Made by a program: the position numbers and the translations under genes. A DNA stretch of 27,098 nucleotides, taken from contig CAZFJT010000001.1 of the NCBI GenBank assembly GCA_964519135.1, positions 1-27,098 on the forward strand, in the 5' to 3' direction. The DNA is from an uncultured Syntrophales bacterium (GTDB lineage: Bacteria; Desulfobacterota; Desulfomonilia; Desulfomonilales; Desulfomonilaceae). Of the stretch, positions 5,859 to 20,562 are shown piece by piece. Every line of letters begins with the position of its first letter. Position 1 is the stretch's first letter. A model generated the notes under the pieces. That model was given only the letters and a program-made list of their open reading frames with translations, was not told the origin of the DNA and did not search any database.

Positions 5859-6101
5859 TCATAATTTCTTAATATGTAATTACTCACTGTGGCCCCATTA
5901 GTTTTCGGAATCGAATCCGGGAATTTTGAATGGGCAGATGTGTTTGCGCTTGTTCCGTACGGGCCCAGAACCGTTTCAATAAGAGTAAATTATAATATTT
6001 TTACTGTTTTTCGAAATATAATGTCACTTGAAATCCGGCCAGGGTTGGGCCCTCCCCATGGATATTGTTAATTACCATGAAGAGGGGTGTACGGATGAAG
6101 T

Positions 6102-6269
6102 TTAATTCCCTGGATCGTACGCTGCGGATCCTGAGTCAACGCAGTCTGAAAGCTCTTCAGGGCTGGCGTTCTTGGGGTCTTTCAGTTGACTCATGTGACA
6201 GATGAATTCGTTTCCCTCTCTGTCTTTTACCCATACCAACGGATCAGAAGGTGTTGTTGCTTCAGCCAT
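6102..6269 (-). CDS. Small acidic hypothetical protein, 55 aa (not in ORF track)
   Basis: Translated by hand: MAEATTPSDPLVWVKDREGNEFICHMSQLKDPKNASPEELSDCVDSGSAAYDPGN*. AAAGGAGAT SD upstream of ATG 6269; TAA at 6102-6104. Confidence 0.75.
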   Translation of the reverse strand: MAEATTPSDPLVWVKDREGNEFICHMSQLKDPKNASPEELSDCVDSGSAAYDPGN

Positions 6270-6318
6270 TTTTAAATCTCCTTTTTTTTGCCAAATCTGA
6301 TCATAGGACCAGAGTTCG

Positions 6319-6337
6319 AGCGTAAAAATTTTACGCT
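6319..6337. promoter_or_regulatory. Palindrome, candidate operator
   Basis: AGCGTAAAA-A-TTTTACGCT (9-bp arms, 1-nt centre), 50 bp upstream of the 55-aa ORF. Confidence 0.35.
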
Positions 6338-6625
6338 GTAAAATTACCAGGGGATTCAGTTTTTGAGATCTATTTTCTCTAAGAGTTTATCTCACATGAA
6401 TGGAATATCCCCCCCAATACCAATATAGAGCCCAGGTTCCATATAAAACCGGGATTCCGGACATCTATATTACAAAACATTATAAACACTGGAATTGCAG
6501 AGGTAAGAGTGTGTCAGGAGAATTAATTGACTGATAATTATGTATATTTCAAGAATAACTAGATTTAAAGTCTGTAAAAAAATATGAAAACCTGGTCTGG
6601 AGGCCGGTGGTTCCGTATTTACGGG

Positions 6626-6907
6626 TCAGTATCTTCCCAGGATATGATCAATGAGCGTATTGGACATTTCCATGAAAATGGCCCTGTATCCACCGGGCCA
6701 GGTGTGTCTTATGGGTGGAGGAGGGACATAGCCGTAATAAATTTGTGATTGATCTTTTACTTGAGGTTGAGTTTTGTGTATGGGCGCCCTGGGAGAATAA
6801 TCGGGCGCGGTAGAGCCCGCCCAGGCCGGAGACCAGGAACAAATAAAAATGAAACATAATATAGTGACAATGCTTCTTATTACTGGTATTGTTGTCTTTT
6901 CTCTCAT
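6626..6907 (-). CDS. Secreted hypothetical protein, 93 aa
   Basis: GAGGT SD; basic n-region, hydrophobic h-region and AWA-G signal peptidase site; YYGYVPPPP motif. Confidence 0.7.
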   Translation of the reverse strand: MREKTTIPVIRSIVTILCFIFICSWSPAWAGSTAPDYSPRAPIHKTQPQVKDQSQIYYGYVPPPPIRHTWPGGYRAIFMEMSNTLIDHILGRY

Positions 6908-7219
6908 TTCTACCTCAGCTAGATATTTTATCCACTTTCCAAGATAAAATCAATTAAAATGGTTTCAAGATTTACTAAGGCCGACAAATAGCGCCCGAAA
7001 ACCGCGTGAGTAAAAATCACGCCTTTTGCTTAAACCGCGAGTGGTTTTCGCTCGCGACGACTGTTTATAAGCTTCTGATATTTAAATGAAATAAAGAGAT
7101 GGGCCATATGCATTTAGCCATGGTTGGAAATAACGCATTTTTCAGGCTTGCCATAAAACAGTCCACAGAAATATAATTAATAATATTAGGTTGATACAAT
7201 GCGCAGCAGTCATTATTAG

Positions 7220-7236
7220 TGGGCACGAATATTGCA
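7220..7236 (+). promoter_or_regulatory. Sigma54 (-24/-12) promoter
   Basis: TGGGCACGAATATTGCA matches 16 of 17 positions of YTGGCACGRNNNTTGCW, with GG (7222-3) and GC (7234-5) exactly 10 nt apart. It faces the chemosensory cluster. Confidence 0.7.
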
Positions 7237-7730
7237 GGCGTTCGTCCTTATGCTAGTGCTATATTGAGATAGTCTCTTTTACTTGTACAAATCTTTGAAG
7301 GAGTTATTTTTAATGATGACCGTTAAATGATCATAAACGGTCGCGTGGGGCTTGAAATCTGAATCATACCAACATAACCAGGACTTTTTATCTTGATTTC
7401 CAGTGCTTGGCCATGATATGCTAGATTATCTCTAAAAGTCGTCAAGAGTAAACCACGCGATCATATACGCATGTTGTAGTAATAGAGATCTTGACACGTT
7501 GTAACGATTGTAAAACGGTATCAACAAAGACTTATAAGCCTCCGGAAGTATTTCATAAGTGCGTTAGGATTCCAGATTTGAATACGCCCTGATAAGCGTT
7601 GAATTTAAGTGGTCGGCCCAGCAAGATAAAGTGTTTTTTAAAAAGGCCTATGTATGAATCTTTGAAAAAAGGGCTTTTACTGTAAAAGGATCAATCAAGT
7701 AAACCTTGTCGGGTCCGGCGCGGGGAAGAA

Positions 7731-8069
7731 ATGGAAAAGGCGCCCCAAGAGGAACACAAAACTGAAGATCTATCCGAGGTCATGGACTTTTCCTCCTATG
7801 ATCTCAGGACAACTGTCCGTCTGGTAATTCATAGCGGTGAGTCCAGGCGTGTGGAAATTAGGCAAGGCAGTAAATGGGGCGCGATATATATAAAGGATGG
7901 GGAACTATATCGTGTAGAAACATCCGAATCAACAGGTGACGAGGCCTTCTTTGAGATACTGGGTTGGAAGAGGGCTTCCCATAATGACCGCATGCAAACT
8001 GAAATAATGGATAGAAACGTCAATATTTCAACTGACGTGTTTCTGGATCTTTTAAACAAGAACGCTTAG
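7731..8069 (+). CDS. Stand-alone DUF4388 (PatA-N-like) domain protein
   Basis: Pattern GAIYIKDGELYRVE...GDEAFFEILGW parallels the DUF4388 segment of the next gene (GLIYVNEGGIVHAE...GVEAFYEIVGW). Confidence 0.7.
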   Translation: MEKAPQEEHKTEDLSEVMDFSSYDLRTTVRLVIHSGESRRVEIRQGSKWGAIYIKDGELYRVETSESTGDEAFFEILGWKRASHNDRMQTEIMDRNVNISTDVFLDLLNKNA

Positions 8070-8213: not shown

Positions 8214-10001
8214 TTGCCTGAACGTAGGATTCTAATATTGGAACAAGGCGCCAAGCTTGGTCACACCATAAAAAGCAGGTTGGAGACCAAAGGGGCCGCG
8301 TTTAGCTTTACTGAAGCCAGCTCAGTGGAAGAGGCTGAAGGCATTGTCTTTAACGAAAAAATCCACATGATTGTTGCCAACCACGACCCAAAGCAAGGAT
8401 TAAACGCCATTGATTTGATAAAAAAGATCAGAGCCAAGCAATCCACAACACATACCGTGGTCATTACCGATAAGGAATATGAAGCCGACCGGAGGGAAGC
8501 ATTATCATACGGATGTTCAGCCTATTTAACGCGACCACTGGCTGATGTTAAGCTTGGGGAATTTGTGTACAACACCCTCTCCAGGCACCAGGGATTCAGG
8601 GGCCGCGTTGTGGATATGCGGCTTGAAGATGTCATTCAAATGTTTTGCTACCGAAAGGACAGCACCCTTTTATCTGTAGTGAATGAAGAAGACAAGGGTC
8701 TGATATATGTAAATGAAGGCGGCATAGTGCATGCTGAAACAGGGGATCTTAGAGGGGTTGAGGCTTTTTATGAAATTGTTGGATGGGAGGCTGGAGAATT
8801 TCTTTCCCAAGTAACCCTGGAAGTGCCTACCCAAACGGTTTACATGGATTGGCAAAGCCTACTGATGGAGGGTATGCGTCAAAAGGACGAAATAAGGCAC
8901 GCATTGGGGCCTTACCCACAAGAGCAAGCATCCCCCCGCGCATCGTCAGCGCCAGCCGCGGGTCGAATAAAATCCAAGAAGATAATGGTTGTGGATGATT
9001 CCAGATTCATTAGAAAGATAGTTCAGGAAATACTAGAATCCGATGAGGCTCTTACAGTGGTAGGATACGCTACCAACGGCCAAGAGGCCCTGGAAAAGAT
9101 CGATGAACTCAAGCCGGATCTCATACTGCTTGATTGGGATATGCCGGTTATGAAAGGCTCCACCACACTGATGCACATAATGATAAGAAGCCCCTGTCCA
9201 GTGGTAGTTCTCAGCGGATTCGTCGGAGGAGTGGGCGCGAATCCTTTTGATTTATTGTGCCTCGGCGCGGTGGACTTTTTGAGAAAACCACAGAACAACT
9301 GGAGAAGGGACGGCAGGGCCAATGACCTTGTGCAAAGGGTTAGGGAAGCCTGTGGAATACATTTTGAGAGAATAAGGCGGGTCAGAATACCCTCCCTTCT
9401 ACCAGAAGACGAACGAGGCCGGGTATCAGGCGCCACAAGCCCATTTTTGGCTGTCATGGGCTCATCAATCGGAGGCTGTTCAGATTTGATACGAATAATT
9501 CCTTCATTAAGTCCTGGTTTAAACGCATCCATAGTTGCTCTCCATGACATGCAGGAGCAGGCTATCGGCGCGTTTGTGGATTATCTGAACAGAAGGTCCA
9601 GGACCCCGGTAAAACAGGTTGAATCAGGTGAACGTCTTATTCAGGGTGTCTGTTACATTCATCCGGCCACTATCCCCTTGGAAGCCCAAAGGGAGAATGG
9701 CCACGTCATACTCAAGGTAATAGCGGATATGCCTGAAACCAATGTCATGGATCATTTTCTTATTTCAGCGTCCAAGGTAATGGGACCCTCCATATTGGGA
9801 ATGCTTCTCTCAGGGGGGCCGGAGGAAAGGGGCGCGGATGGGCTAAGGGCCGTAAAGCAAGCCGAGGGCATTACCGCGATACAGGATCCGGATTCCAGCA
9901 TAGACCCAAGAATGGCCTCAAAAGCGGCGCTAACCGGTGTTGTTGATCACACATGGCCCGCTGACCTTGTGGCTAGATCTTTGGAAAAAATAATTGATTA
10001 A
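8214..10001 (+). CDS. Pseudo-receiver / DUF4388 / receiver / CheB-like esterase fusion, probably catalytically dead
   Basis: aa ~1-122: degenerate REC (LEQ, N56, TRP). aa ~127-227: DUF4388. aa ~255-380: intact REC (VVDDS, D307, KP). aa ~410-595: CheB fold (GSSIGG, LHDMQ, LSGGPEERGADG, QDPDSS). TTG start with GGGAG SD. Confidence 0.85.
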   Translation: MPERRILILEQGAKLGHTIKSRLETKGAAFSFTEASSVEEAEGIVFNEKIHMIVANHDPKQGLNAIDLIKKIRAKQSTTHTVVITDKEYEADRREALSYGCSAYLTRPLADVKLGEFVYNTLSRHQGFRGRVVDMRLEDVIQMFCYRKDSTLLSVVNEEDKGLIYVNEGGIVHAETGDLRGVEAFYEIVGWEAGEFLSQVTLEVPTQTVYMDWQSLLMEGMRQKDEIRHALGPYPQEQASPRASSAPAAGRIKSKKIMVVDDSRFIRKIVQEILESDEALTVVGYATNGQEALEKIDELKPDLILLDWDMPVMKGSTTLMHIMIRSPCPVVVLSGFVGGVGANPFDLLCLGAVDFLRKPQNNWRRDGRANDLVQRVREACGIHFERIRRVRIPSLLPEDERGRVSGATSPFLAVMGSSIGGCSDLIRIIPSLSPGLNASIVALHDMQEQAIGAFVDYLNRRSRTPVKQVESGERLIQGVCYIHPATIPLEAQRENGHVILKVIADMPETNVMDHFLISASKVMGPSILGMLLSGGPEERGADGLRAVKQAEGITAIQDPDSSIDPRMASKAALTGVVDHTWPADLVARSLEKIID

Positions 10002-10051: not shown

Positions 10052-10594
10052 ATGAACGGCAATAATAACCCCCAACTAGGCTCAGGAGATGTTGCTGAAA
10101 TTGCGCAAATGATAAGTTTCTCCATCGGCTCTGAGCAATTCGGCCTAAATATCTTGATGGTTAAGGAAATCATCATGATCCCGGAAATTACGGAGATCCC
10201 GAACTCTCCTGATTTTGTGGAGGGGGTTATTAATCTGCGCGGTGAGATAATGCCTGTTCTGGATCTCAGGAAGAGATTAAGGCTCAGGGGTGTGCAGACC
10301 GAAGCCAAAAGGGGCCCGGGCAACCGTATTCTGGTTGTGGAAATAGAAGGCAACATTACTGGTTTTATAGTGGATTCAGTATCAAAGGTCCTTTCAGTTC
10401 CTATGAACAAGGTATTTCCACCTCCGGACATAATAGTTGGAGGTGTCCAGAGCCAGTACATCAGCGGAGTGGTGCACTTGGACGACAGAATTCTAGTTAT
10501 TCTGGATTTTGGAAAGATTCTTTCCCATGATGAGAAAGATGTGCTGGAAAGGGTTCCCAGACTAGCGCCTGAACAGGTGGGCGGCGCGTTGTAA
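10052..10594 (+). CDS. cheW: Chemotaxis coupling protein CheW
   Basis: ITEIPNSPDFVEGVINLRGEIMPVLDLRKRL; GFIVDSVSKV. Confidence 0.95.
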   Translation: MNGNNNPQLGSGDVAEIAQMISFSIGSEQFGLNILMVKEIIMIPEITEIPNSPDFVEGVINLRGEIMPVLDLRKRLRLRGVQTEAKRGPGNRILVVEIEGNITGFIVDSVSKVLSVPMNKVFPPPDIIVGGVQSQYISGVVHLDDRILVILDFGKILSHDEKDVLERVPRLAPEQVGGAL

Positions 10595-10702
10595 ATATAC
10601 GTAGCAATTATAGTATACAGGTGAATCAGTGAACCAAACAGGAAAACATGCGGTTAGTCCGCTAGCAATCTATACTTTCGACGAATCCCAGGAGGAATGG
10701 CA

Positions 10703-13129
10703 ATGGCGTTCTCATTTAAGAACATCTTCGGAAGAATAGGGTTCGGTAGAACTCTTAGGAACAAGCTCCTTGTAGCTTTTCTCTTACTCTCACTAATCCC
10801 TTTTGGAATCGCCGCTTATATGGCGTACTATTACATCCAGGACGTTGCCGAGAATCAGGCGTACAGTCAGATGCAGCGTATGTCCCAGGACGCTTTGCAC
10901 ACTGCGAACGTTTATATGAACGAACGTGTGGCTGACCAGTTGGTGTGGTCTGAGCTCAGGGTTGTCAAGGAAGCCCTTGATGTTGCAGAGGTAAGGGAGG
11001 ACGCCACTGAAACCCTGAAAGAGCTCGTCAAGTACTATGGTTCCTATGAAGCTATTATGGTGCTCAATAATAAGGGCACGTGCGTTGTGTCGAGCTGGCC
11101 TGGATTCGTTGGTCAGAGCTTCGGTAAAGACCCTCTTTTTAGGGGTCCAACAAAGGGGCAAAACTATGTAAGTGGGTTCCAGGTAGATAAAAGGATCAGG
11201 AAGATCAACCCAAAGGGTCAAGGTTTTACACTTGTCTTCTCAGTTCCCATTAAGATTGGAGGCAAGGTATCAGGTGTTGTGGCCTCCTTCTTTAAATGGT
11301 CGGCCCTTACGGAGATCCTTGACGAATTTAGACTGGGAAAGACCGGCCACGTTGGTGTTATTAATAAAGACTTGAAATATATTTATTATCCTAGAGATAT
11401 CGATCCTGGTCTTCTCTTAAAAACAGTTGGATCTAAAGGCCGTACAGCACTCCGAGACGCCATTAGGAACAAGCAGCACTCTTTTACTTATTCCAGGAAA
11501 GATCCTAAAACGGGGGTTCCAACTACAAGAATCGCTGATATTGAGTACGCGACTACAAAATACAAGAACTTTCCGGCCACAGGATGGTTCGTTTACGCTT
11601 CCGCGGATAGATCTCAGATTCTCTCCGCCCTACCTGGGGTTATTCGAAACCTTGCAATAGTCGCGGCGGTTATTTTGGCCTTGGTTGTTATAGCCACATT
11701 CTTCATCGCTGGAACCATTTCCCGGCCAATCACAGGTTTGGCCAATGTTATGGCCCAGGTTGACGAAAACTTGGATCTTACAATCAGGGCGCCTGTGACC
11801 ACACAGGATGAAACCGGTCAGACAGCCGAGACGTTCAACCGTCTTCTGGAGAACTTCCAGAATTCATTTACGTCGGTTCTTGATGCGGTTGTCAGGGTCC
11901 GGGAGTCTTCTTCTGAGGTTAATGAGGTTACCCAAAGGATCGTTGTTAACGCGACAGCCCAGTCAGAGCGTGCAAGGAACGTGCTCGACAGGGTCGGCGC
12001 GATGGGTGAAACAGCCCAGGAGGTCTCTTCAAACGCTCAGGAGACCCAGAGAGCAGCGTCCGACACGGATGAACGCATGAGGATAACCACCTCTAATATT
12101 GAAAGTGTCGCTGAAAGGTCAAGGGTCCAGCTTGAGCATTCCACTGAAACAGCAAATATTATCGATCAAATGGGTGAAACAGCCAGGGCGGTTGCTGAAA
12201 GGGCCAATGACCAGGCCGAGGCCGCCCGTGTTACAACTGAAGCCGTTTCCCGTATTGCCCAGGAAATTCAGGAAGTGGCCAGAGGCGCGGATGAAGCGAA
12301 TCAGCAATCGGCTCTCACCGACCGTTTTGCCCGTGAGGGTGGAGAGGCCGTCGACCAGGTGGTTGGCGGTATGAGGAGTATCGCTGAAGCGTCTGAACAG
12401 ATCAACGAAATCATGGACGTTATTTCGTCAATTGCCGAGCAAACGAACTTGCTGGCCTTGAACGCAGCTATTGAGGCGGCAAGGGCCGGTGAACACGGTA
12501 AAGGTTTTGCGGTTGTTGCGGACGAAGTTAGAAAGCTCGCTGAGAGAACCGCTGAATCAACCAACGAGATTGGAGAGCTCATTCGAGAAAGTAACCGACG
12601 TGTTGAGGAAGGAGAACGACTGTCCGCGATGAGCCGTGACGCTCTTACCCAAATTCAGGACGGTGTTGTGAAGACCAATGAGCTCATCTCCAGTATTACC
12701 GAGGGAACGGTCAGGCAAACCCAGGAAATTGGCGATGTGCAGAGGGCCATGGACAGGATGACACAGCTTGCCCAGGAAATTCTCAAGCTTACGGATGAGC
12801 AGGCCAGCAGAAGGGTCCAGGCCGCTGAATCTATGACCACGGTGCGTGAGGAGGCCATGACGGTTACCCAATCCGCTGAACAAGAGGTTGTTACAGCGGC
12901 GGCGGTTGCCGAATCCATGATCGGGGTTACAGAGCGAGCCGAAAATATCGCTAAACTCACTGGATTGCAGACTGAGCGTTCAGCGATTCTCAGACAGATT
13001 ATGGCTGAAATGTCCGAAACAGCGGCCGCTAACGCAGAGGGCGCAGCAGGGGCTTCTGATACTACATTGAAACTTGCTAATGTTGCTGAAGAGCTCGCCC
13101 AGCTCGTTGAGCAATTCAAAATTCAGTAG
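10703..13129 (+). CDS. Methyl-accepting chemotaxis-family receptor: TM-dCache-like-TM-HAMP-extended signalling domain
   Basis: Two TM helices and HAMP ([13 protein letters not shown]); tip [44 protein letters not shown] is 7 nt before ATG 10703. Residue numbers elsewhere count from the track start 10697. Confidence 0.95.
12002..12184 (+). repeat. Exact 15-bp repeat within the MCP, 168 nt (8 heptads) apart
   Basis: ATGGGTGAAACAGCC at 12002-12016 and 12170-12184 (MGETA twice). Confidence 0.85.
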
Positions 13130-13186: not shown

Positions 13187-13546
13187 ATGGGCGTGAGGGT
13201 CCTAGTGGTTGATGATTCTGGTTTTATGAGGAAACGGGTTTGTGAGCAACTTGAAGCTCAAGGTCACTCCGTGATCGGAGAGGCCAAGGGTGGAAATGAA
13301 GCTGTTGAAATGTTCAAGACGCTCAAACCCGACCTTATAACCATGGATATTACCATGCGTGATAAAGATGGAATCACAGCGGCAAAAGAGATTATGGAAT
13401 TGGATCCTCAGGCCAAAATCCTTTTTCTGACCATACTCAAGGATGAGAAATATAAAGCCGAAGCAAAAGATATAGGCGCCATCGGTTTTTTGAACAAAAC
13501 CGATCAGAACTCTATTGCAGAGGTTCTTAAGGGTTTAGACATATAG
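13187..13546 (+). CDS. cheY: Single-domain response regulator, CheY-like
   Basis: VVDDSGFMR, PDLITMD(54)ITM, FLT and LNK; GAGGTG SD; lies in a che cluster. Confidence 0.88.
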   Translation: MGVRVLVVDDSGFMRKRVCEQLEAQGHSVIGEAKGGNEAVEMFKTLKPDLITMDITMRDKDGITAAKEIMELDPQAKILFLTILKDEKYKAEAKDIGAIGFLNKTDQNSIAEVLKGLDI

Positions 13547-13780: not shown

Positions 13781-14542
13781 ATGGCCCCAAATCAAAGCGC
13801 CACTAGGGATGTAAGAGGTTCAAACGCTTTGTCTTCGAACAGGAGAGAAGGGAGCGCCAATGGACGCGCCTCAGTCTTGTTCCAAAAATCCTGGGCGCAT
13901 AAGTTAATTCCGATTGCATTGGCTCTTGCGGCAATAGTGGCCATCGGAATCACAACAAAGGTGGTCTGGGACCTTAACTTGAAGGGTCAGGCGTACCGAG
14001 GTATTTCGGCCTCCAAATCAGTTGAGCCGGGAACAAACACAGAACACATAGTAGCAGCGCCCATAGTAAATGGAATAGGAGTATACCAAAAAGCATTGGG
14101 GTCTTTTAGGCGAGGCCTGTATCTGATAATGGCCACAATCGCGATATCTTTTATAAGTATTCTGGCGCTCTTTATAAGCAAATTCGTTGTTCCCTTGAAC
14201 ACCATATCTAATGTGGTCCGGACAATGGCCGACGGAGATCTTACAATATCCGCGCCTGAAAAACTGCCTGATGACATGAGGTCTTTAGGCAAAGGATTGA
14301 ATGATTTGGCGGCCAACTTTCAGGAAGTCTTGCTTTTTACCGGAACCATGTGTGGAAACTTAAAATCTGAACTGGCTGCGCTGGAAGCTGATTTGTCAAG
14401 TGAAAACAGCACACTTGACCCGGAACAAATAAAAGCCGAGATTGCCGGACTTAGATCTGAGATAGAAATACTCTCTGAAATGGTTGAACAGTTCAAATAT
14501 TATCAGGTGGAATTTGATGGCAGTGAAGTTAAACCCAAATGA
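13781..14542 (+). CDS. Two-TM HAMP protein, MCP-like but without the signalling hairpin
   Basis: TM1, short loop, TM2, HAMP (PLNTISNVVRTMADGDLT...DDMRSLGKGLNDL), short coiled coil ending LSEMVEQFK like the MCP's LAQLVEQFK. Confidence 0.8.
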   Translation: MAPNQSATRDVRGSNALSSNRREGSANGRASVLFQKSWAHKLIPIALALAAIVAIGITTKVVWDLNLKGQAYRGISASKSVEPGTNTEHIVAAPIVNGIGVYQKALGSFRRGLYLIMATIAISFISILALFISKFVVPLNTISNVVRTMADGDLTISAPEKLPDDMRSLGKGLNDLAANFQEVLLFTGTMCGNLKSELAALEADLSSENSTLDPEQIKAEIAGLRSEIEILSEMVEQFKYYQVEFDGSEVKPK

Positions 14543-14688: not shown

Positions 14689-17600
14689 ATGATAGACATC
14701 GAACTCCTGGAAGATTACACCACTGAGGCGCGAGAAGTTTTAGACGACCTGGACGCCAACCTCATTCGTTTAGAGCAGGAGGGCGCCACCCAGGAAACCC
14801 TCAATAATGTTTTTCGGGCGGCCCACTCAATAAAAGGCTCGGCAGAGTACATCGGACTGGATCGTTCCAGCGCCCTGACCCATGGTGTTGAAACATTACT
14901 GGATCTATTACGGGAAGGAATGTTGGAAGTTACTCAGGAAGTGGTGGAATTCCTTTTTAAGGCCAAAGACTGTATATCCGCTCTGGTGGACGAGGTAGCA
15001 AGAGATCACGAGGAAAAAACAGATATATCCGGTCTTTTATCAGAGCTTGAAATACTGGTAAGCAAGTCTGATAAATCATCAGAAGTTTCGGAGATTACGG
15101 CGATAATAGAAGAGGCTGTGCAGGAGCGGCCAGAACCGGCTGAACAGGATCTCATTGAAGGACATGATGAAGAGCTGGAAACCCAAGGGCCGCAGGAAGA
15201 AGATCTCGAAGCGGACTTCATGCAACCTGAGGCTTTTTTCTCTGAATCGGACCGAGAGGAACTCGGAACTGCTCTCAATCAAATAGTAGAGTCTGATAGG
15301 GAATCCGAGCCGGATCAGTCTGCGATTCCAGCCACAGAAGACCTGGTTGAAAGACCTTATCCGGAAGATGATGATGAAACACCAACCGGGGAATTGGACG
15401 CAGGGACCACACTGGAAGAGACGGTTCCTCACCTGCTCAATCTATCATTGTACCTGGATGATCTGGCCGATGGCATCGCCATAGAGGAAGCGCTAACCTC
15501 CTTTTCTGAAACCGTTTCAAGATTGACCAGATCAATGGAGTTCCTGCAGATCCCTGAGGCTGTTACCATATTGGAATCATTGGAAGCTTCGGTAAATTCA
15601 TTGGATCTGGTTGATCAAAAGGTCAGTGATGATGAAATATCACGTTTGAGATTGCAATTACATGATCTTAGACCCTGCTATCCAGCGGATATATTTCCAT
15701 GGCCCGAATCTGAGGATGAACACACCCAGGAGGAGCCCACCGAGGACTTTGTAAAAAGGGATTTCTACTTACAATTGGAAAGTATCAAAGGTCTTGATCC
15801 GGGATTCTACGATAACCTGTACGACGCGGGTTTCACTTCTATTGCACAGTTGGCGGGCTCGTCCTTCAGTTCACTCTCTAACCTCCCGGGCATGACGGAT
15901 CAAGCCGCTGAAGCGATAATCTCCGCGCTCAAACCTGAACCTGTTCCAAAGAAGAAGGTCCCCGCCCGCGCGCCTGCCGCTCCTAAATCCATGCTCGCTG
16001 ATGTGGATGATGATCTTTTGAGCGAATTTGAGGGTATGTTTCAAGATGTGGAATCAGCTAAGGGTCAGGGCAAGTCCATTGGGGAATTGGACCCATCAGA
16101 TGAGCTGTTTGTTGATATCCAGGCTATTGGAGAAGATACGGACAAGGAAATAATGGAGATCTTCCTATCATATGGATGGGAAATAGTAGATAAGATCCAT
16201 GCAATTGTGGACAAGGTGAAAAAAGGCAAGACCGAGCAGAGCGACCTGCTGGCCTGCGCGGACCTGGTGAAATCGATTAAATCCTCTTCCACTTATATGG
16301 ATTTTCAGAATCTTGCCCTATTCCTGGACGATTGGTACGAACGATCCCTTTGGGCGGCTGAAAGGGTTGAATCGTTAACTGAAGAAGAGCTTAATTTCAT
16401 CCCAAAGGTATTTGATCGTTTTGAGAAATTTCTCCATGCTTTAGAAGGGGCCATGAAGCCTGAGACCAAAGCCCCAATTAAACAGAAGCCCCCAGAGCCT
16501 GCGCCGCGCCCAACAAAGGAAGCCCGGAAGACCAGACCTGAAGAACCAATGCGCAAGCAAGCCGAATACGAGCCTATCCAGGAAACAACCAAGCACCCAA
16601 AGGCGCCTGAAATCGAAGAGGCGCCGCCCCAGGCCGACGCTGCTGCAACCAAGCCCAAGGCGCCCATGACGGAAACATTTGAAGTGGAGATGGTTTCAGA
16701 TAAGACGTCCACTGCAAAGGCGGAAGCTCCCGGCGGGCCTGTTGGTCAATTTGAAGGAGACGTTTCCCTTACAAGGGATTCCTCTGCTGAAAGTCCTGTT
16801 GTCAGGACTATGCGTGTGGATTCTTCAAAGGTTGATTTACTCCTGAACCAGGTAGGAGAACTAGTTGTTAACAGGTCATATGTGGAGCAGTTGTCCAATG
16901 AGCTCAAGCTATTCCAAAGGGAAATTGCCGCAGCCACAAAAGTGGGTAAAGATGAGTCTGTGGCGATTCGTGACATCACCACAAAGTTGGGAGAAGCCGC
17001 GTTGTCCCTTGGTCGTGTGGCGACGGACATACAAGAAGGGGTTATGAAATTGAGGATGTTGCCGGTGGGGCAACTCTTCAACAGAATGCCCAGACTGATT
17101 CGCGATCTTTCCAGACGAATGGGCAAGAATATCTCGTTACATGTCATGGGTGGAGACACCGAGGTGGATAAACGGGTAATAGAGCAGGTTTATAATCCTC
17201 TGGTCCATTTGATACGCAACGCGGTGGATCACGGAATAGAAGACAAGGAATCCAGGCTCAAACTCGGTAAAAAAGAAGAGGGTAATATAACGCTCAACGC
17301 CTACTCCCAAGGCAACCACGTGGTTATTGACGTTGAGGATGATGGTGGTGGGATAAACACCAAAGCTGTTCTTAACAGGGCCGTGGAGAACAGGCTTTTG
17401 GACGCGGGCGAGGCCAAGCGACTAAGCCCGGAAGAAACGTACAACTTCCTATTCGTTCCAGGATTCTCGACAAGTAACAAGGTTACGAGAACATCCGGCA
17501 GGGGAGTGGGAATGGATGTTGTAAAAAAGGACGTGGAGAAGATAAGCGGACATGTTGAGGTACAGTCAAGAGAGAACCAAGGAACAAAAGTCTCCATAAA

Positions 17601-18102
17601 GATCCCCCTGACCCTTGCCATTATTCAAGCCCTCCTGGTTAGGTCCGGCAAGCACTGCTTTGCCATACCTTTGACCTCAGTGAGGGAAATCGTTCAGATC
17701 ATGCCCCATGAAATAACCACCATAGAGGGCTTTGAGGTGATCAGGTTCCGTGAAGACACAGTGCCGATACTCAGACTTGGGGATATTTTCAACATTGATG
17801 TGGATCCAAGGTTGGAGAATGAAGGATTCCTGATTTTGGCCAGCGCGGGTCTTAAGACCATCGGATTCCTTGTACAAGGCCTTATTGGTGAACAGGACGT
17901 GGTGATAAAGCCTTTGGCGGAGCATGTGTTCAAAAGCAGAGGGTTGGCTGGATCCACTATTCTTGGTGACGGCACAATAGCCCTTGTGATGGACGTGGCC
18001 GAAATAGTGGATGACGTAATAGCCTCTAAGCGAAGGATGATAGCCATGCAATCCAATGGGTATAACCAATCTATCCTTGATGAGGGAAGGCCGGAAGCCT
18101 GA
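14689..18102 (+). CDS. cheA: Chemotaxis histidine kinase CheA, 1137 aa, with expanded N-terminal half
   Basis: P1 FRAAH(46)SIKG; P3 RVDSSKVDLLLNQVGELVV; P4 HLIRNAVDHGIE, DDGGG, FVPGFST, SGRGVGMDVV; C-terminal P5/CheW domain. Confidence 0.96.
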   Translation: MIDIELLEDYTTEAREVLDDLDANLIRLEQEGATQETLNNVFRAAHSIKGSAEYIGLDRSSALTHGVETLLDLLREGMLEVTQEVVEFLFKAKDCISALVDEVARDHEEKTDISGLLSELEILVSKSDKSSEVSEITAIIEEAVQERPEPAEQDLIEGHDEELETQGPQEEDLEADFMQPEAFFSESDREELGTALNQIVESDRESEPDQSAIPATEDLVERPYPEDDDETPTGELDAGTTLEETVPHLLNLSLYLDDLADGIAIEEALTSFSETVSRLTRSMEFLQIPEAVTILESLEASVNSLDLVDQKVSDDEISRLRLQLHDLRPCYPADIFPWPESEDEHTQEEPTEDFVKRDFYLQLESIKGLDPGFYDNLYDAGFTSIAQLAGSSFSSLSNLPGMTDQAAEAIISALKPEPVPKKKVPARAPAAPKSMLADVDDDLLSEFEGMFQDVESAKGQGKSIGELDPSDELFVDIQAIGEDTDKEIMEIFLSYGWEIVDKIHAIVDKVKKGKTEQSDLLACADLVKSIKSSSTYMDFQNLALFLDDWYERSLWAAERVESLTEEELNFIPKVFDRFEKFLHALEGAMKPETKAPIKQKPPEPAPRPTKEARKTRPEEPMRKQAEYEPIQETTKHPKAPEIEEAPPQADAAATKPKAPMTETFEVEMVSDKTSTAKAEAPGGPVGQFEGDVSLTRDSSAESPVVRTMRVDSSKVDLLLNQVGELVVNRSYVEQLSNELKLFQREIAAATKVGKDESVAIRDITTKLGEAALSLGRVATDIQEGVMKLRMLPVGQLFNRMPRLIRDLSRRMGKNISLHVMGGDTEVDKRVIEQVYNPLVHLIRNAVDHGIEDKESRLKLGKKEEGNITLNAYSQGNHVVIDVEDDGGGINTKAVLNRAVENRLLDAGEAKRLSPEETYNFLFVPGFSTSNKVTRTSGRGVGMDVVKKDVEKISGHVEVQSRENQGTKVSIKIPLTLAIIQALLVRSGKHCFAIPLTSVREIVQIMPHEITTIEGFEVIRFREDTVPILRLGDIFNIDVDPRLENEGFLILASAGLKTIGFLVQGLIGEQDVVIKPLAEHVFKSRGLAGSTILGDGTIALVMDVAEIVDDVIASKRRMIAMQSNGYNQSILDEGRPEA

Positions 18103-18226: not shown

Positions 18227-19000
18227 ATGGGCCAGCTTGTAGCAATAATCAGCCAAAAAGGGGGGGTTGGGAAGACTTCAACTGCCGTAAATCTTGGCGC
18301 GTGCCTCTCGGCGCTAAAAAGACGGGTTTTACTGGTTGGTATGGATCCTCAATGTGGCCTGGCGCAAAGCTTTGGGCTGGAGATTTCTTCCGATTCCGAT
18401 GGCATGTTCAGCGCGATTAAAGGGAATGCGCGCATGGATCATATCATTCATCAGACGAATCCTAGATTACCAAGATTGGATATGGCGGCGTGCAATATCT
18501 CATCCGCGGCTCAGGAGATAGAGTATTTAAACATACTTCAGGCGAATCCATCAATGCTGGCCGAGCTTCTCAATGATATGCGGCCACACTATGATTATAT
18601 CTTCATAGATTGCCCCCCAAGATTGGACAGTCCGACTCAGTCTGCGTTGATAGCCGCTGACTCCTATTTGGTTCCCGTCCAATGCGAATACGCCTCAGTA
18701 GGCACAGTGGGAGCGGTGTTGAGATCAGCGCTGGAAGTGAAAAGACTAAAAAATCCCGGACTCGGCATTTTCGGATTTCTGATCACAATGGCTGACAAAA
18801 GGGCCTCTTTTACATACGGCGTCATTAAGGAGATAAGGCAATATCTTAAGGAAAGGGTTTTTAAAACAATTATTCCCCGCGATCCTAAATTGGCTGAGGT
18901 CCCTGTTAGGCAATCTCCCATAATTGCTTACGACAAGAATGCTGTCGGCGCCAGGGCCTACATACAATTGGCGCGGGAAATCCTCAGTAAATCTAGTTAA
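18227..19000 (+). CDS. ParA/Soj-family ATPase within the chemosensory cluster
   Basis: Deviant Walker A KGGVGKT, MDPQ, Walker B YDYIFIDCPP, VPVQCE and IIPR. Confidence 0.92.
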   Translation: MGQLVAIISQKGGVGKTSTAVNLGACLSALKRRVLLVGMDPQCGLAQSFGLEISSDSDGMFSAIKGNARMDHIIHQTNPRLPRLDMAACNISSAAQEIEYLNILQANPSMLAELLNDMRPHYDYIFIDCPPRLDSPTQSALIAADSYLVPVQCEYASVGTVGAVLRSALEVKRLKNPGLGIFGFLITMADKRASFTYGVIKEIRQYLKERVFKTIIPRDPKLAEVPVRQSPIIAYDKNAVGARAYIQLAREILSKSS

Positions 19001-19184: not shown

Positions 19185-20249
19185 ATGGATGATATTTCAA
19201 ACAATAAACGGGTTCGAGTTCTTGTGGTGGACGATTCCGCTCTCATGCGTAAGCAGATAAGCTCGATTTTGGAATCAGACTCTCAATTGAGTGTTGTGGG
19301 GGACGCAAAAGATGGTGAAGACGCTTTGGCCAAGATTGGGGAACTCAAACCTGATGTTGTTACATTAGATGTTGAAATGCCCCGCATGAACGGCATAACC
19401 GCCTTGAAACACATAATGTTGAAGCACGCCATTCCCACGGTAATGATTAGCGCTCTAACAAGCGAGGGATCAAAGACCACTTTTGACGCTTTGAGATACG
19501 GAGCGGTCGAGGTTATCTCAAAACCCTCCAGGCGAGATACCGATAGTTTGGAAGCCCAGAGTAAGGACATAATTTCCAAGGTAAAAAGGGCGGCCGTAAT
19601 AAGAACCGGAAGGCTTAAGTATGTTAGAGTCGCTGGGGACGAGGCTATGAAGTCCGCTGAAAACATGACGCCCGCTGATAATGATACTGCGGTAGTGGGA
19701 ATGGTTACCGGAACAGGCGGTTATTATACTCTGTTAAGAATCATTCCGGCCTTGGCCCCTGATTTCAGTGGAGTCATAGTTGCTGTGATGAATATAAGAT
19801 CCAAATATGTAGAGCCATTTATCACATATTTGCAAGCCCATAGCAGGGCGCCTGTCCAGACGGTGAAAGGCATGGCCTCTCCAAAACAAGGTTGCTGCTA
19901 TGTATGCGCGTCAGAGGATCTGCCGGTAATTGAGAAATCCAATGACAGCGCCCTAAGAATAAGGCTGGAAGGGCCATCGGATCACCCTTTAAACCCAGGC
20001 CCATTGGATCGTTTTTTAATGTCCCTGTCTTTTGCATTGGTTGAAAAATCTGTTGGAATAATCTTAACAGGCGCTGGAAAGGACGGAGCTGAAGGACTCG
20101 CCAGCATTCGTCACGCTGGAGGAATCGCGGCGATACAGGATATCAACAACTGCGCGGACCCATCCATGCCGTTGGCCTGCCTTGAAAAGGGCACAGTGGA
20201 CAGGATAATACCTGATTATGAATTGGCTGATTTCATTAATAGCGTTTAG
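19185..20249 (+). CDS. cheB: CheB-like response regulator (REC + esterase fold) lacking the catalytic Ser and His
   Basis: REC: VVDDSALMR, D62 (LDVEMP), SKP. Esterase fold: VTGTGG, VMNIR, ILTGAGKDGAEG. Confidence 0.88.
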   Translation: MDDISNNKRVRVLVVDDSALMRKQISSILESDSQLSVVGDAKDGEDALAKIGELKPDVVTLDVEMPRMNGITALKHIMLKHAIPTVMISALTSEGSKTTFDALRYGAVEVISKPSRRDTDSLEAQSKDIISKVKRAAVIRTGRLKYVRVAGDEAMKSAENMTPADNDTAVVGMVTGTGGYYTLLRIIPALAPDFSGVIVAVMNIRSKYVEPFITYLQAHSRAPVQTVKGMASPKQGCCYVCASEDLPVIEKSNDSALRIRLEGPSDHPLNPGPLDRFLMSLSFALVEKSVGIILTGAGKDGAEGLASIRHAGGIAAIQDINNCADPSMPLACLEKGTVDRIIPDYELADFINSV

Positions 20250-20271: not shown

Positions 20272-20562
20272 ATGAATTTAGAACTGAACCCGGCTCAAGC
20301 TGAAGAATCCTACGCAAAAATATTAGACATACTTGATCGTAATAACCTTCTGGCTGAAAGATTGCCTTATACAAAAGGATTATTCGAGGAAGCCTTGTTT
20401 TTCTGTTACAAGATGCGATTGATAACCCAGGGTGATGTTAAGAAAATGCTCGGGTTGGACAGACAAGGTCTGAAAATACTAATAAATGAATGGAATAGCG
20501 GCGACGAAGGAAACTGCTCGTGCAGGCTGGCCAGAAATCCCTTTGCTGATGAAATTGAATGA
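20272..20562 (+). CDS. Hypothetical protein, 96 aa, possible HTH and C-terminal CxC
   Basis: 22 nt after cheB with an AAGGA SD; ITQGDVKKMLGLDRQGL resembles an HTH; NCSCR near the C-terminus. Confidence 0.7.
   Translation: MNLELNPAQAEESYAKILDILDRNNLLAERLPYTKGLFEEALFFCYKMRLITQGDVKKMLGLDRQGLKILINEWNSGDEGNCSCRLARNPFADEIE

Follow-up and report, generated by a model that had tools for sequence, protein, structure and literature searches.

A family of CheB-like response regulators without the catalytic Ser and His in a CheR-less chemosensory operon

What does a CheB-like protein do when residues of the CheB active site are missing from it? The question is raised by the last gene of a chemosensory operon in a 27,098-nucleotide stretch of DNA from an uncultured Syntrophales bacterium (GTDB family Desulfomonilaceae; assembly GCA_964519135.1, contig CAZFJT010000001.1, positions 1 to 27,098 of the forward strand), hereafter the window. 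The gene encodes a response regulator with a CheB-like second domain, here called dead CheB, and a first-pass annotation of the window had proposed that it has lost the nucleophile and the His of the catalytic triad and is kept by selection on a non-enzymatic role. Comparison of homologues, gene neighbourhoods and a structure model indicates that this loss runs through a whole family, and we rate dead CheB as a response regulator in which a repurposed enzyme fold serves as the effector domain. The matter reaches beyond this genome: CheB is among the enzymes that define bacterial chemotaxis, and automatic annotation labels all these proteins "methylesterase".

Domains and catalytic residues of dead CheB

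The gene and its parts are as follows.

19185 to 20249, + strand: gene for a receiver plus a CheB-like pseudo-esterase, 354 codons (354 amino acids) with no interruption (open reading frame, Pfam, AlphaFold2 model)
19209 to 19538, + strand: receiver domain, residues 9-118, with D16, D17, D62, S89 and K113 (Pfam, phmmer, codons)
19539 to 19688, + strand: linker, residues 119-168, with a conserved basic helix at 122-140 (family alignment, AlphaFold2 model)
19689 to 20240, + strand: CheB-like domain, residues 169-352 (Pfam, phmmer, codons, Foldseek)

The open reading frame (ORF) is full length, free of stops and frameshifts as the first-pass annotation had read it, and a Shine-Dalgarno-like GGGGA run lies about 9 nt 5' of its ATG; a scan for promoters and terminators around the gene gave nothing above chance. 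Pfam assigns Response_reg to residues 12-118 (85 bits) and CheB_methylest (PF01339) to residues 171-351 (105.8 bits, cut-off 24), and finds no PATAN/DUF4388 domain in the polypeptide. Among all PDB chains, the best phmmer matches are the CheBs 6YMZ (P. atrosepticum), 7ESG (Haloarcula) and 1A2O (Salmonella), with E values of 7e-37 to 2e-35. The NCBIfam CheB models NF001965 and NF009206 score the protein under their cut-offs (246.1 vs 293 bits and 218 vs 342 bits, respectively). An AlphaFold2 model built with 41 homologues adopts the CheB fold, with a mean predicted local distance difference test (pLDDT) score of 78 and a predicted template modelling (pTM) score of 0.62, and Foldseek matches it to full-length CheB 6YMZ (E 1e-28) and to the catalytic domain 3SFT (template modelling score 0.90, root mean square deviation 2.1 Å).

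In the alignments, VTGTGG (residues 174-179) pairs with GASTGG and thereby places Gly176 at the position of the nucleophile, Ser164 of Salmonella CheB; MNIR (202-205) pairs with QHMP, placing Asn203 at the position of His190; and LTGAGKDG (294-301) pairs with LTGMGNDG, making Asp300 the counterpart of Asp286. The codons, read directly, are GGA for Gly176 (19710-19712), AAT for Asn203 (19791-19793), GAC for Asp300 (20082-20084) and GAT for D62 (19368-19370). Dead CheB thus has no Ser-His-Asp triad, of which it retains only the Asp, while the phospho-acceptor set of its receiver is complete (D16/D17, D62, S89, K113). These assignments bear out the residue changes named in the first-pass annotation as well as its statement that LTGAGKDG and the receiver D62 are intact. 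Its claim that the Ser-to-His spacing is preserved also agrees with the data, as the two positions are 27 residues apart both in dead CheB and in the canonical CheB of the same genome (contig C82), and 26 apart in Salmonella CheB. Because both the Ser and the His of the triad are replaced, dead CheB is, judged by its residues, incapable of Ser-His-Asp esterase chemistry. The idea that the Ser-to-Gly change created a Rossmann-like nucleotide loop was dropped, since canonical CheB already carries G-x-S-x-G-G.

Family-wide loss, selection and a remodelled active-site face

To judge how far the loss extends, we took the 120 best matches, at 47-81% identity, from a collection of 5.8 billion proteins; their named members include Desulfomonile tiedjei, Desulfomonilaceae and metagenome-assembled genomes of Thermodesulfobacteriota. 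The nucleophile position holds Gly in 119 homologues and Ala in one, and Ser in none. At the His position Leu prevails (about 80%), the rest being variable, and His occurs once in the 120. The catalytic Asp is present in 102 of the 120, with Ala, His or Glu in the others. The receiver residues D16/D17, D62, S89 and K113 are invariant or almost so, and the CheB-like domain is full length in every homologue. The substitutions are therefore not private to the window protein, the circumstance in which, according to the first-pass annotation, its reading would fall. Since the same loss recurs in each of the 120 closest homologues, the pattern is not one of chance, and the alignment marks the loss of Ser and His as family-wide and ancient. 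Of 24 other genera in the GTDB family, 19 have genomes with an orthologue at 48-56% identity, whereas 16 genomes from a neighbouring family of the same class yield canonical-level matches only (32-35% identity). Public annotations call the homologues CheB methylesterase or plain response regulator.

The position of the gene is likewise fixed. Searches by tblastn with each protein recover the same nine-gene order, with dead CheB last, in 13 loci from different genera. At the DNA level we compared the gene with those of the two closest relatives with retrievable DNA (L111 and L113, 81% and 79% amino-acid identity). The nonsynonymous divergence (dN) is 0.14, and the synonymous divergence (dS) by the Nei-Gojobori method (NG86) exceeds 2 or is undefined; since even comparison with the closest relatives shows saturation at synonymous sites, the uncorrected ratio of nonsynonymous to synonymous differences (pN/pS) was used as an upper bound on omega. 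It amounts to 0.16-0.18 against the window gene and 0.07-0.12 between L111 and L113, and is alike in the receiver and the CheB-like domain, far from the dN/dS near 1 that the first-pass annotation had named as contrary to its view. By this comparison both domains are shown to be under purifying selection. Across the 13 syntenic orthologues, mean identity to the window protein is 69% for the receiver and 47% for the CheB-like domain, a span that agrees with the operon's CheA (46-52%) and methyl-accepting chemotaxis protein (MCP; 46-63%). Taken together, the family-wide loss, the low pN/pS (0.07-0.18) and the fixed operon position support the view, put forward in the first-pass annotation, that selection maintains a non-enzymatic, or at least non-esterase, role. 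Dead CheB combines the features of a pseudo-enzyme: the enzyme fold is kept, the catalytic residues are gone, and purifying selection acts on the gene.

Beyond the two residues noted at first, the whole active-site neighbourhood is replaced. The 120 family members were compared with 75 CheBs of other phyla and genomes, 74 of which are S-H-D; this control set came out of a genome-contig scan with the family alignment, which worked by receiver-domain patterns and yielded mostly canonical CheBs; apart from the control set, five loci of the scan (L011-L015) were kept as relatives. Canonical CheBs have 43 positions with a conservation of at least 85%, and 24 of these are changed or variable in the dead CheB family. 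Common to both groups are the structural glycines and the motifs that define the fold, namely G174, T177, G178, G179, G296, G298, G301, G304 and M328-P329 (window protein numbering, as below). Replaced or variable are the canonical cleft residues at Q202-H203-M204-P205, F208, T209, A213, R215 and E226, and further cleft positions at A241-P242, H246, P272, M297, E320, V325 and G327. Conversely, Y180, Y181, L184, Y208, Y215, H219, C238, Y239, R309, I320, N322, D325, P326 and D344 are near-invariant (at least 92%) in the dead CheB family only, and the linker residues Q125, R135, R140, G142 and Y146 are at least 94% conserved within it. According to the secondary structure of the AlphaFold2 model, most family-specific residues lie at helix starts or in loops after beta-strands, and that edge of the sheet bears the active site in CheB. 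Their placement suggests a face that has been remodelled and is still constrained. A metal or redox site formed by H219, C238, C241 and C323 was dropped as a general explanation, since all four residues occur together in only 54 of the 120 homologues.

Operon, genome and the wider CheB-like clade

The other genes of the operon, and the ORF that follows it, are listed here.

7731 to 8069, + strand: opening gene of the operon, for a small DUF4388 (PATAN) protein that stands alone (Pfam, synteny)
8214 to 10001, + strand: REC-DUF4388(PATAN)-REC-CheB-like fusion (Pfam)
10052 to 10594, + strand: CheW (Pfam)
10697 to 13129, + strand: dCache-HAMP MCP (Pfam, motif scan)
13187 to 13546, + strand: CheY (Pfam, synteny)
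13781 to 14542, + strand: small membrane HAMP protein, weakly conserved at 26-37% identity (Pfam)
14689 to 18102, + strand: CheA kinase with Hpt, HHH_5, dimerisation, HATPase_c and CheW-like domains (Pfam, synteny)
18227 to 19000, + strand: ParA/MinD-type ATPase (Pfam, synteny)
20272 to 20562, + strand: 96-amino-acid ORF, 22 nt past dead CheB, with no Pfam or NCBIfam match

Immediately 5' of dead CheB, L111 and each of the 13 syntenic loci have the ParA gene. No CheR is found in the window or in the 13 syntenic 20-kb loci, while the same query, as a control, finds CheR domains of 32-38% identity elsewhere. A methylation-site consensus scan of the operon MCP gave no match. About 420 residues of this receptor follow HAMP, a very long cytoplasmic domain in which conserved EQ pairs occur only in the tip region and at positions 701 and 805. 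The 96-residue ORF follows the orthologue only in the close relatives L113 and L120 and was probably added recently instead of belonging to the core. The roughly 1.9 kb upstream of the operon (5859-7730) are without a convincing ORF and, like the rest of the window, without an Rfam match; a large leader or regulatory region may lie there, or else small genes.

Elsewhere in the genome, genes for methylation are present, namely the canonical S-H-D REC-CheB on contig C82, two CheB-CheR fusions and one CheR-TPR protein, and a CheR encoded there could still act in trans on the operon's receptor. The two CheB-CheR fusions (contigs C107 and C123; L001/L008 and L003/L007) are large proteins without a receiver that continue into long coiled-coil/sensor regions, and they carry the motifs GASAGG, QHLE and SGTGT(E/D)G. 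Neither this genome nor any of the 31 sampled genomes of the family has FliM, and PilB- and PilT-like ATPases are encoded in this genome on contigs C165, C223 and C563. From the absence of FliM and the presence of PilB/PilT-type ATPases, gene content assigns the operon to something other than a flagellar (F-class) chemotaxis system, and the family appears to be non-flagellated yet equipped with several chemosensory systems.

The second CheB-like protein of the operon, the fusion at 8214-10001, has Ser (GSSIGG) and His (LHDM) with Arg at the Asp position. In its orthologues (L114-L124) the Asp is missing in all, LHDMQ is invariant and the Ser position holds S, A, F or G, which makes the fusion, as far as its residues tell, also a family-wide pseudo-esterase. 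To place both proteins, dead CheB was searched by phmmer against 1.84 billion cluster representatives, which returned 2019 proteins at E up to 1e-30; the best 150 were analysed, a sample centred on the query in which its relatives are over-represented. Of these representatives, 72 are S-H-D; the remainder have broken triads in many combinations with the receiver intact, and typically read GGY where CheB has GGP. Trees were built without the triad columns and are unrooted. FastTree (170 rows) gives the canonical CheB clade a support of 99 and the other side 92, and IQ-TREE under LG+C20 with posterior mean site frequencies (PMSF; 76 rows) gives the split between canonical and non-canonical proteins a Shimodaira-Hasegawa-like approximate likelihood ratio (SH-aLRT) of 98. 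Both CheB-like proteins of the window fall inside the non-canonical clade, where they represent two distinct lineages, the stand-alone family (support 99) and the fusion family (100); S-H-D persists in two members of this clade. The first-pass annotation had inferred two independent inactivations from the different losses in the two proteins. The losses do differ, as it said, in that the fusion keeps Ser and His and has Arg for Asp; the independence holds for the residues and less well for the event behind them. As both proteins lie in one supported clade, the catalytic constraint was probably released once, in the clade ancestor before the lineages split, and the residues then decayed independently.

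This clade is also marked by its partner domains. DUF4388/PATAN occurs in 35 of 74 representatives with degenerate triads vs 0 of 71 with S-H-D (Fisher p = 4e-13), and the S-H-D representatives are fused to CheR or CheA modules instead. A paralogue on contig C103 of this genome (L125, 6086-7600, - strand), 504 amino acids long and 43% identical to dead CheB, consists of REC, a dead CheB-like domain with the motif GLCAGIGCYY, and a C-terminal DUF4388 domain; it adjoins a pentapeptide-repeat/winged helix-turn-helix protein and a REC-PAS protein. The neighbours of other paralogues are not MCPs but ordinary HWE/HisKA_2 kinases and a CHASE2 cyclase, a setting that argues for the dead CheB domain as a general output or regulatory module and not a receptor-docking device.

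Related gene clusters occur outside the family. In two contigs of Desulfobulbaceae/Candidatus Electrothrix (L014 and L015) the gene order differs: a dead CheB-like gene (A-Y-D) is followed by MCP, CheW, CheY, the small HAMP protein, CheA and a fusion-type CheB; ParA and CheR were not detected within the 17-21 kb examined there. In an uncultured Thermodesulfobacteriota contig (L013, 807-4809), two degenerate CheB-like genes adjoin a CheR gene, and IQ-TREE places one of them in a separate "S/T/G-E-D" lineage next to the canonical CheBs.

Possible roles of dead CheB and comparison with known systems

We favour, at a rough probability of 0.55, the reading that dead CheB is a phosphorylation-switched, non-catalytic binding module that works with the operon's PATAN proteins. 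Asp62 would be phosphorylated, the operon's CheA being the presumed phosphodonor; phosphorylation would expose the remodelled C-terminal face, as the active site is exposed in CheB, and this face would be used for binding a partner and not for cutting a substrate. The likeliest partners would be the two PATAN proteins at 7731-8069 and 8214-10001, which are preferred because, in about half of the lineages, a related dead CheB-like domain is joined to PATAN in one polypeptide. By such reversible binding, in place of covalent receptor demethylation, the kinase signal might be relayed, or limited in time, toward the pilus/cell-polarity machinery. In cyanobacteria, PATAN (identical with DUF4388) serves as the output domain of the PatA-type regulators; in Synechocystis its binding partners are PilB1 and PilC, and the cyanobacterial Tax systems are without CheR and CheB (bioRxiv 10.1101/2021.06.11.447907). 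A pilus output is suggested here because the cyanobacterial PATAN binds the type IV pilus motor.

Dead CheB might instead serve the receptor, its phosphorylated domain docking on the adaptation region of the MCP and damping the kinase by binding, as a non-covalent form of adaptation. Both proteins are encoded in the same operon, the CheB fold is kept together with the glycine-rich loops that shape the pocket (G174, T177, G178, G179, G296, G298, G301), and with no CheR at the loci and no methylation consensus in the MCP some other feedback would be needed. However, the residues of the canonical substrate cleft are replaced or variable, close paralogues adjoin ordinary histidine kinases with no MCP nearby, and the fusions seen in half of the related lineages are to PATAN and not to receptor-binding modules; we consider such docking unlikely. 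Slightly less credence goes to a pure phosphate sink, in which the receiver would compete with CheY and the fusion for the phosphoryl groups of CheA and drain them away, and the C-terminal domain would be inert. Across the 13 orthologues no part of the protein is better conserved than the receiver, its phospho-chemistry residues are intact, and several receivers of the operon compete for one CheA; yet pN/pS is as low in the 185-residue CheB-like domain as in the receiver, and this domain has gained about 14 family-specific near-invariant residues, and is complete in all 120 homologues, whereas ballast would decay or vanish.

ParA, whose gene lies directly 5' in 13 of 13 syntenic loci and in L111, could be the partner, with dead CheB tying the chemosensory array or a cargo to ParA positioning and phosphorylation controlling the link. 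ParA partners act through short basic peptides, which the conserved, K/R-rich basic linker helix (R135, R140) may resemble. Canonical CheBs, though, have a similar KV(K/R)xAA linker helix, and L014 and L015 combine a related dead CheB with no ParA match, so that the ParA link would be confined to the family; this role seems to us a little less likely again than a sink. That Cys238 and His219, with Asp325 or Asp344, or another set of residues, provide a different hydrolytic or transfer chemistry is improbable. The residues are conserved in the dead CheB family only (H219 93%, C238 92%, D325 97%, D344 100%), but the Cys-His pair is missing in about 17% of members, nothing places the residues close together in space, H219 sits at the end of a helix far from the old pocket in the modelled secondary structure, and no related enzyme is known. 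A decaying pseudogene or an annotation artefact has nothing in its favour beyond the missing catalytic residues and is refuted by conservation: intact reading frames stand here and in more than 120 relatives, pN/pS does not exceed 0.18 and synteny is fixed.

Several points weigh against phosphorylation-switched binding to PATAN proteins as well. The partnership is guilt by fusion in relatives, dead CheB itself being without PATAN, and its invariant neighbour gene encodes ParA, not a PATAN protein. Evolution is faster in the CheB-like domain than in the receiver (47% vs 69% identity over the 13 orthologues), and the former His loop at 202-205 varies, which means that part of the old face is unconstrained. 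The AlphaFold2 model is of moderate confidence (pLDDT 78), and the conserved residues are placed by secondary structure only. The cluster on L013 has a CheR, so the wider clade is not uniformly methylation-free. More tentatively, the whole ancient and widespread clade, with GxxxGGY for GASTGGP and the receiver intact, may have been repurposed as PATAN partners or cis-modules, forming an output and feedback layer for type IV pili or polarity in non-flagellated bacteria; phosphorylation-timed binding would there replace adaptation by methylation, and dead CheB would be the form that acts in trans.

In our literature search neither catalytically dead CheB families nor a CheB-PATAN association turned up, nor did a paper that joins "pseudoenzyme", "CheB" and "chemotaxis"; the search covered subscription journals poorly, and an earlier mention is possible. 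The large, degenerate CheB-derived group is thus apparently undescribed. That a whole family keeps a non-esterase CheB in a conserved, CheR-less operon and is without flagella indicates an unstudied wiring of chemosensory arrays to non-flagellar outputs, and makes dead CheB a candidate for a pathway reset without receptor methylation. Systematic mis-annotation of such proteins, moreover, inflates the counts of "methylation-competent" chemosensory systems in genome surveys.

Among known systems, the CheB protein-glutamate methylesterase/glutaminase (EC 3.1.1.61; Salmonella 1A2O/1CHD, P. atrosepticum 6YMZ, T. maritima 3SFT) shares with dead CheB the succession of receiver, linker and CheB alpha/beta fold, the receiver chemistry and the location in a che operon. 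They differ in that dead CheB, or its family, has Gly for the Ser, Asn or Leu for the His and a replaced QHMP box and cleft, and in that its operon has no CheR, its receptor no methylation consensus and its host no flagella. Phosphate-sink CheY paralogues, such as Sinorhizobium CheY1 and the Rhodobacter CheYs, are extra receivers that compete for the phosphoryl groups of CheA; they are single-domain proteins, whereas dead CheB has a second domain of 185 residues under selection. The PatA-type PATAN-REC regulators (PixG and PixE of the Tax/Pix systems) are, like dead CheB, response regulators; they serve pilus-directed chemosensory systems without CheR or CheB, and the window operon has two PATAN/DUF4388 proteins of its own; in contrast, dead CheB is without its own PATAN and has a CheB-derived output domain, while the cyanobacterial systems are without any CheB-like gene. 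The fusion CheB and the paralogue on C103 belong to the same non-canonical clade and, like dead CheB, have intact receivers and broken triads; they have lost other residues of the triad and carry PATAN in cis, whereas dead CheB stands alone.

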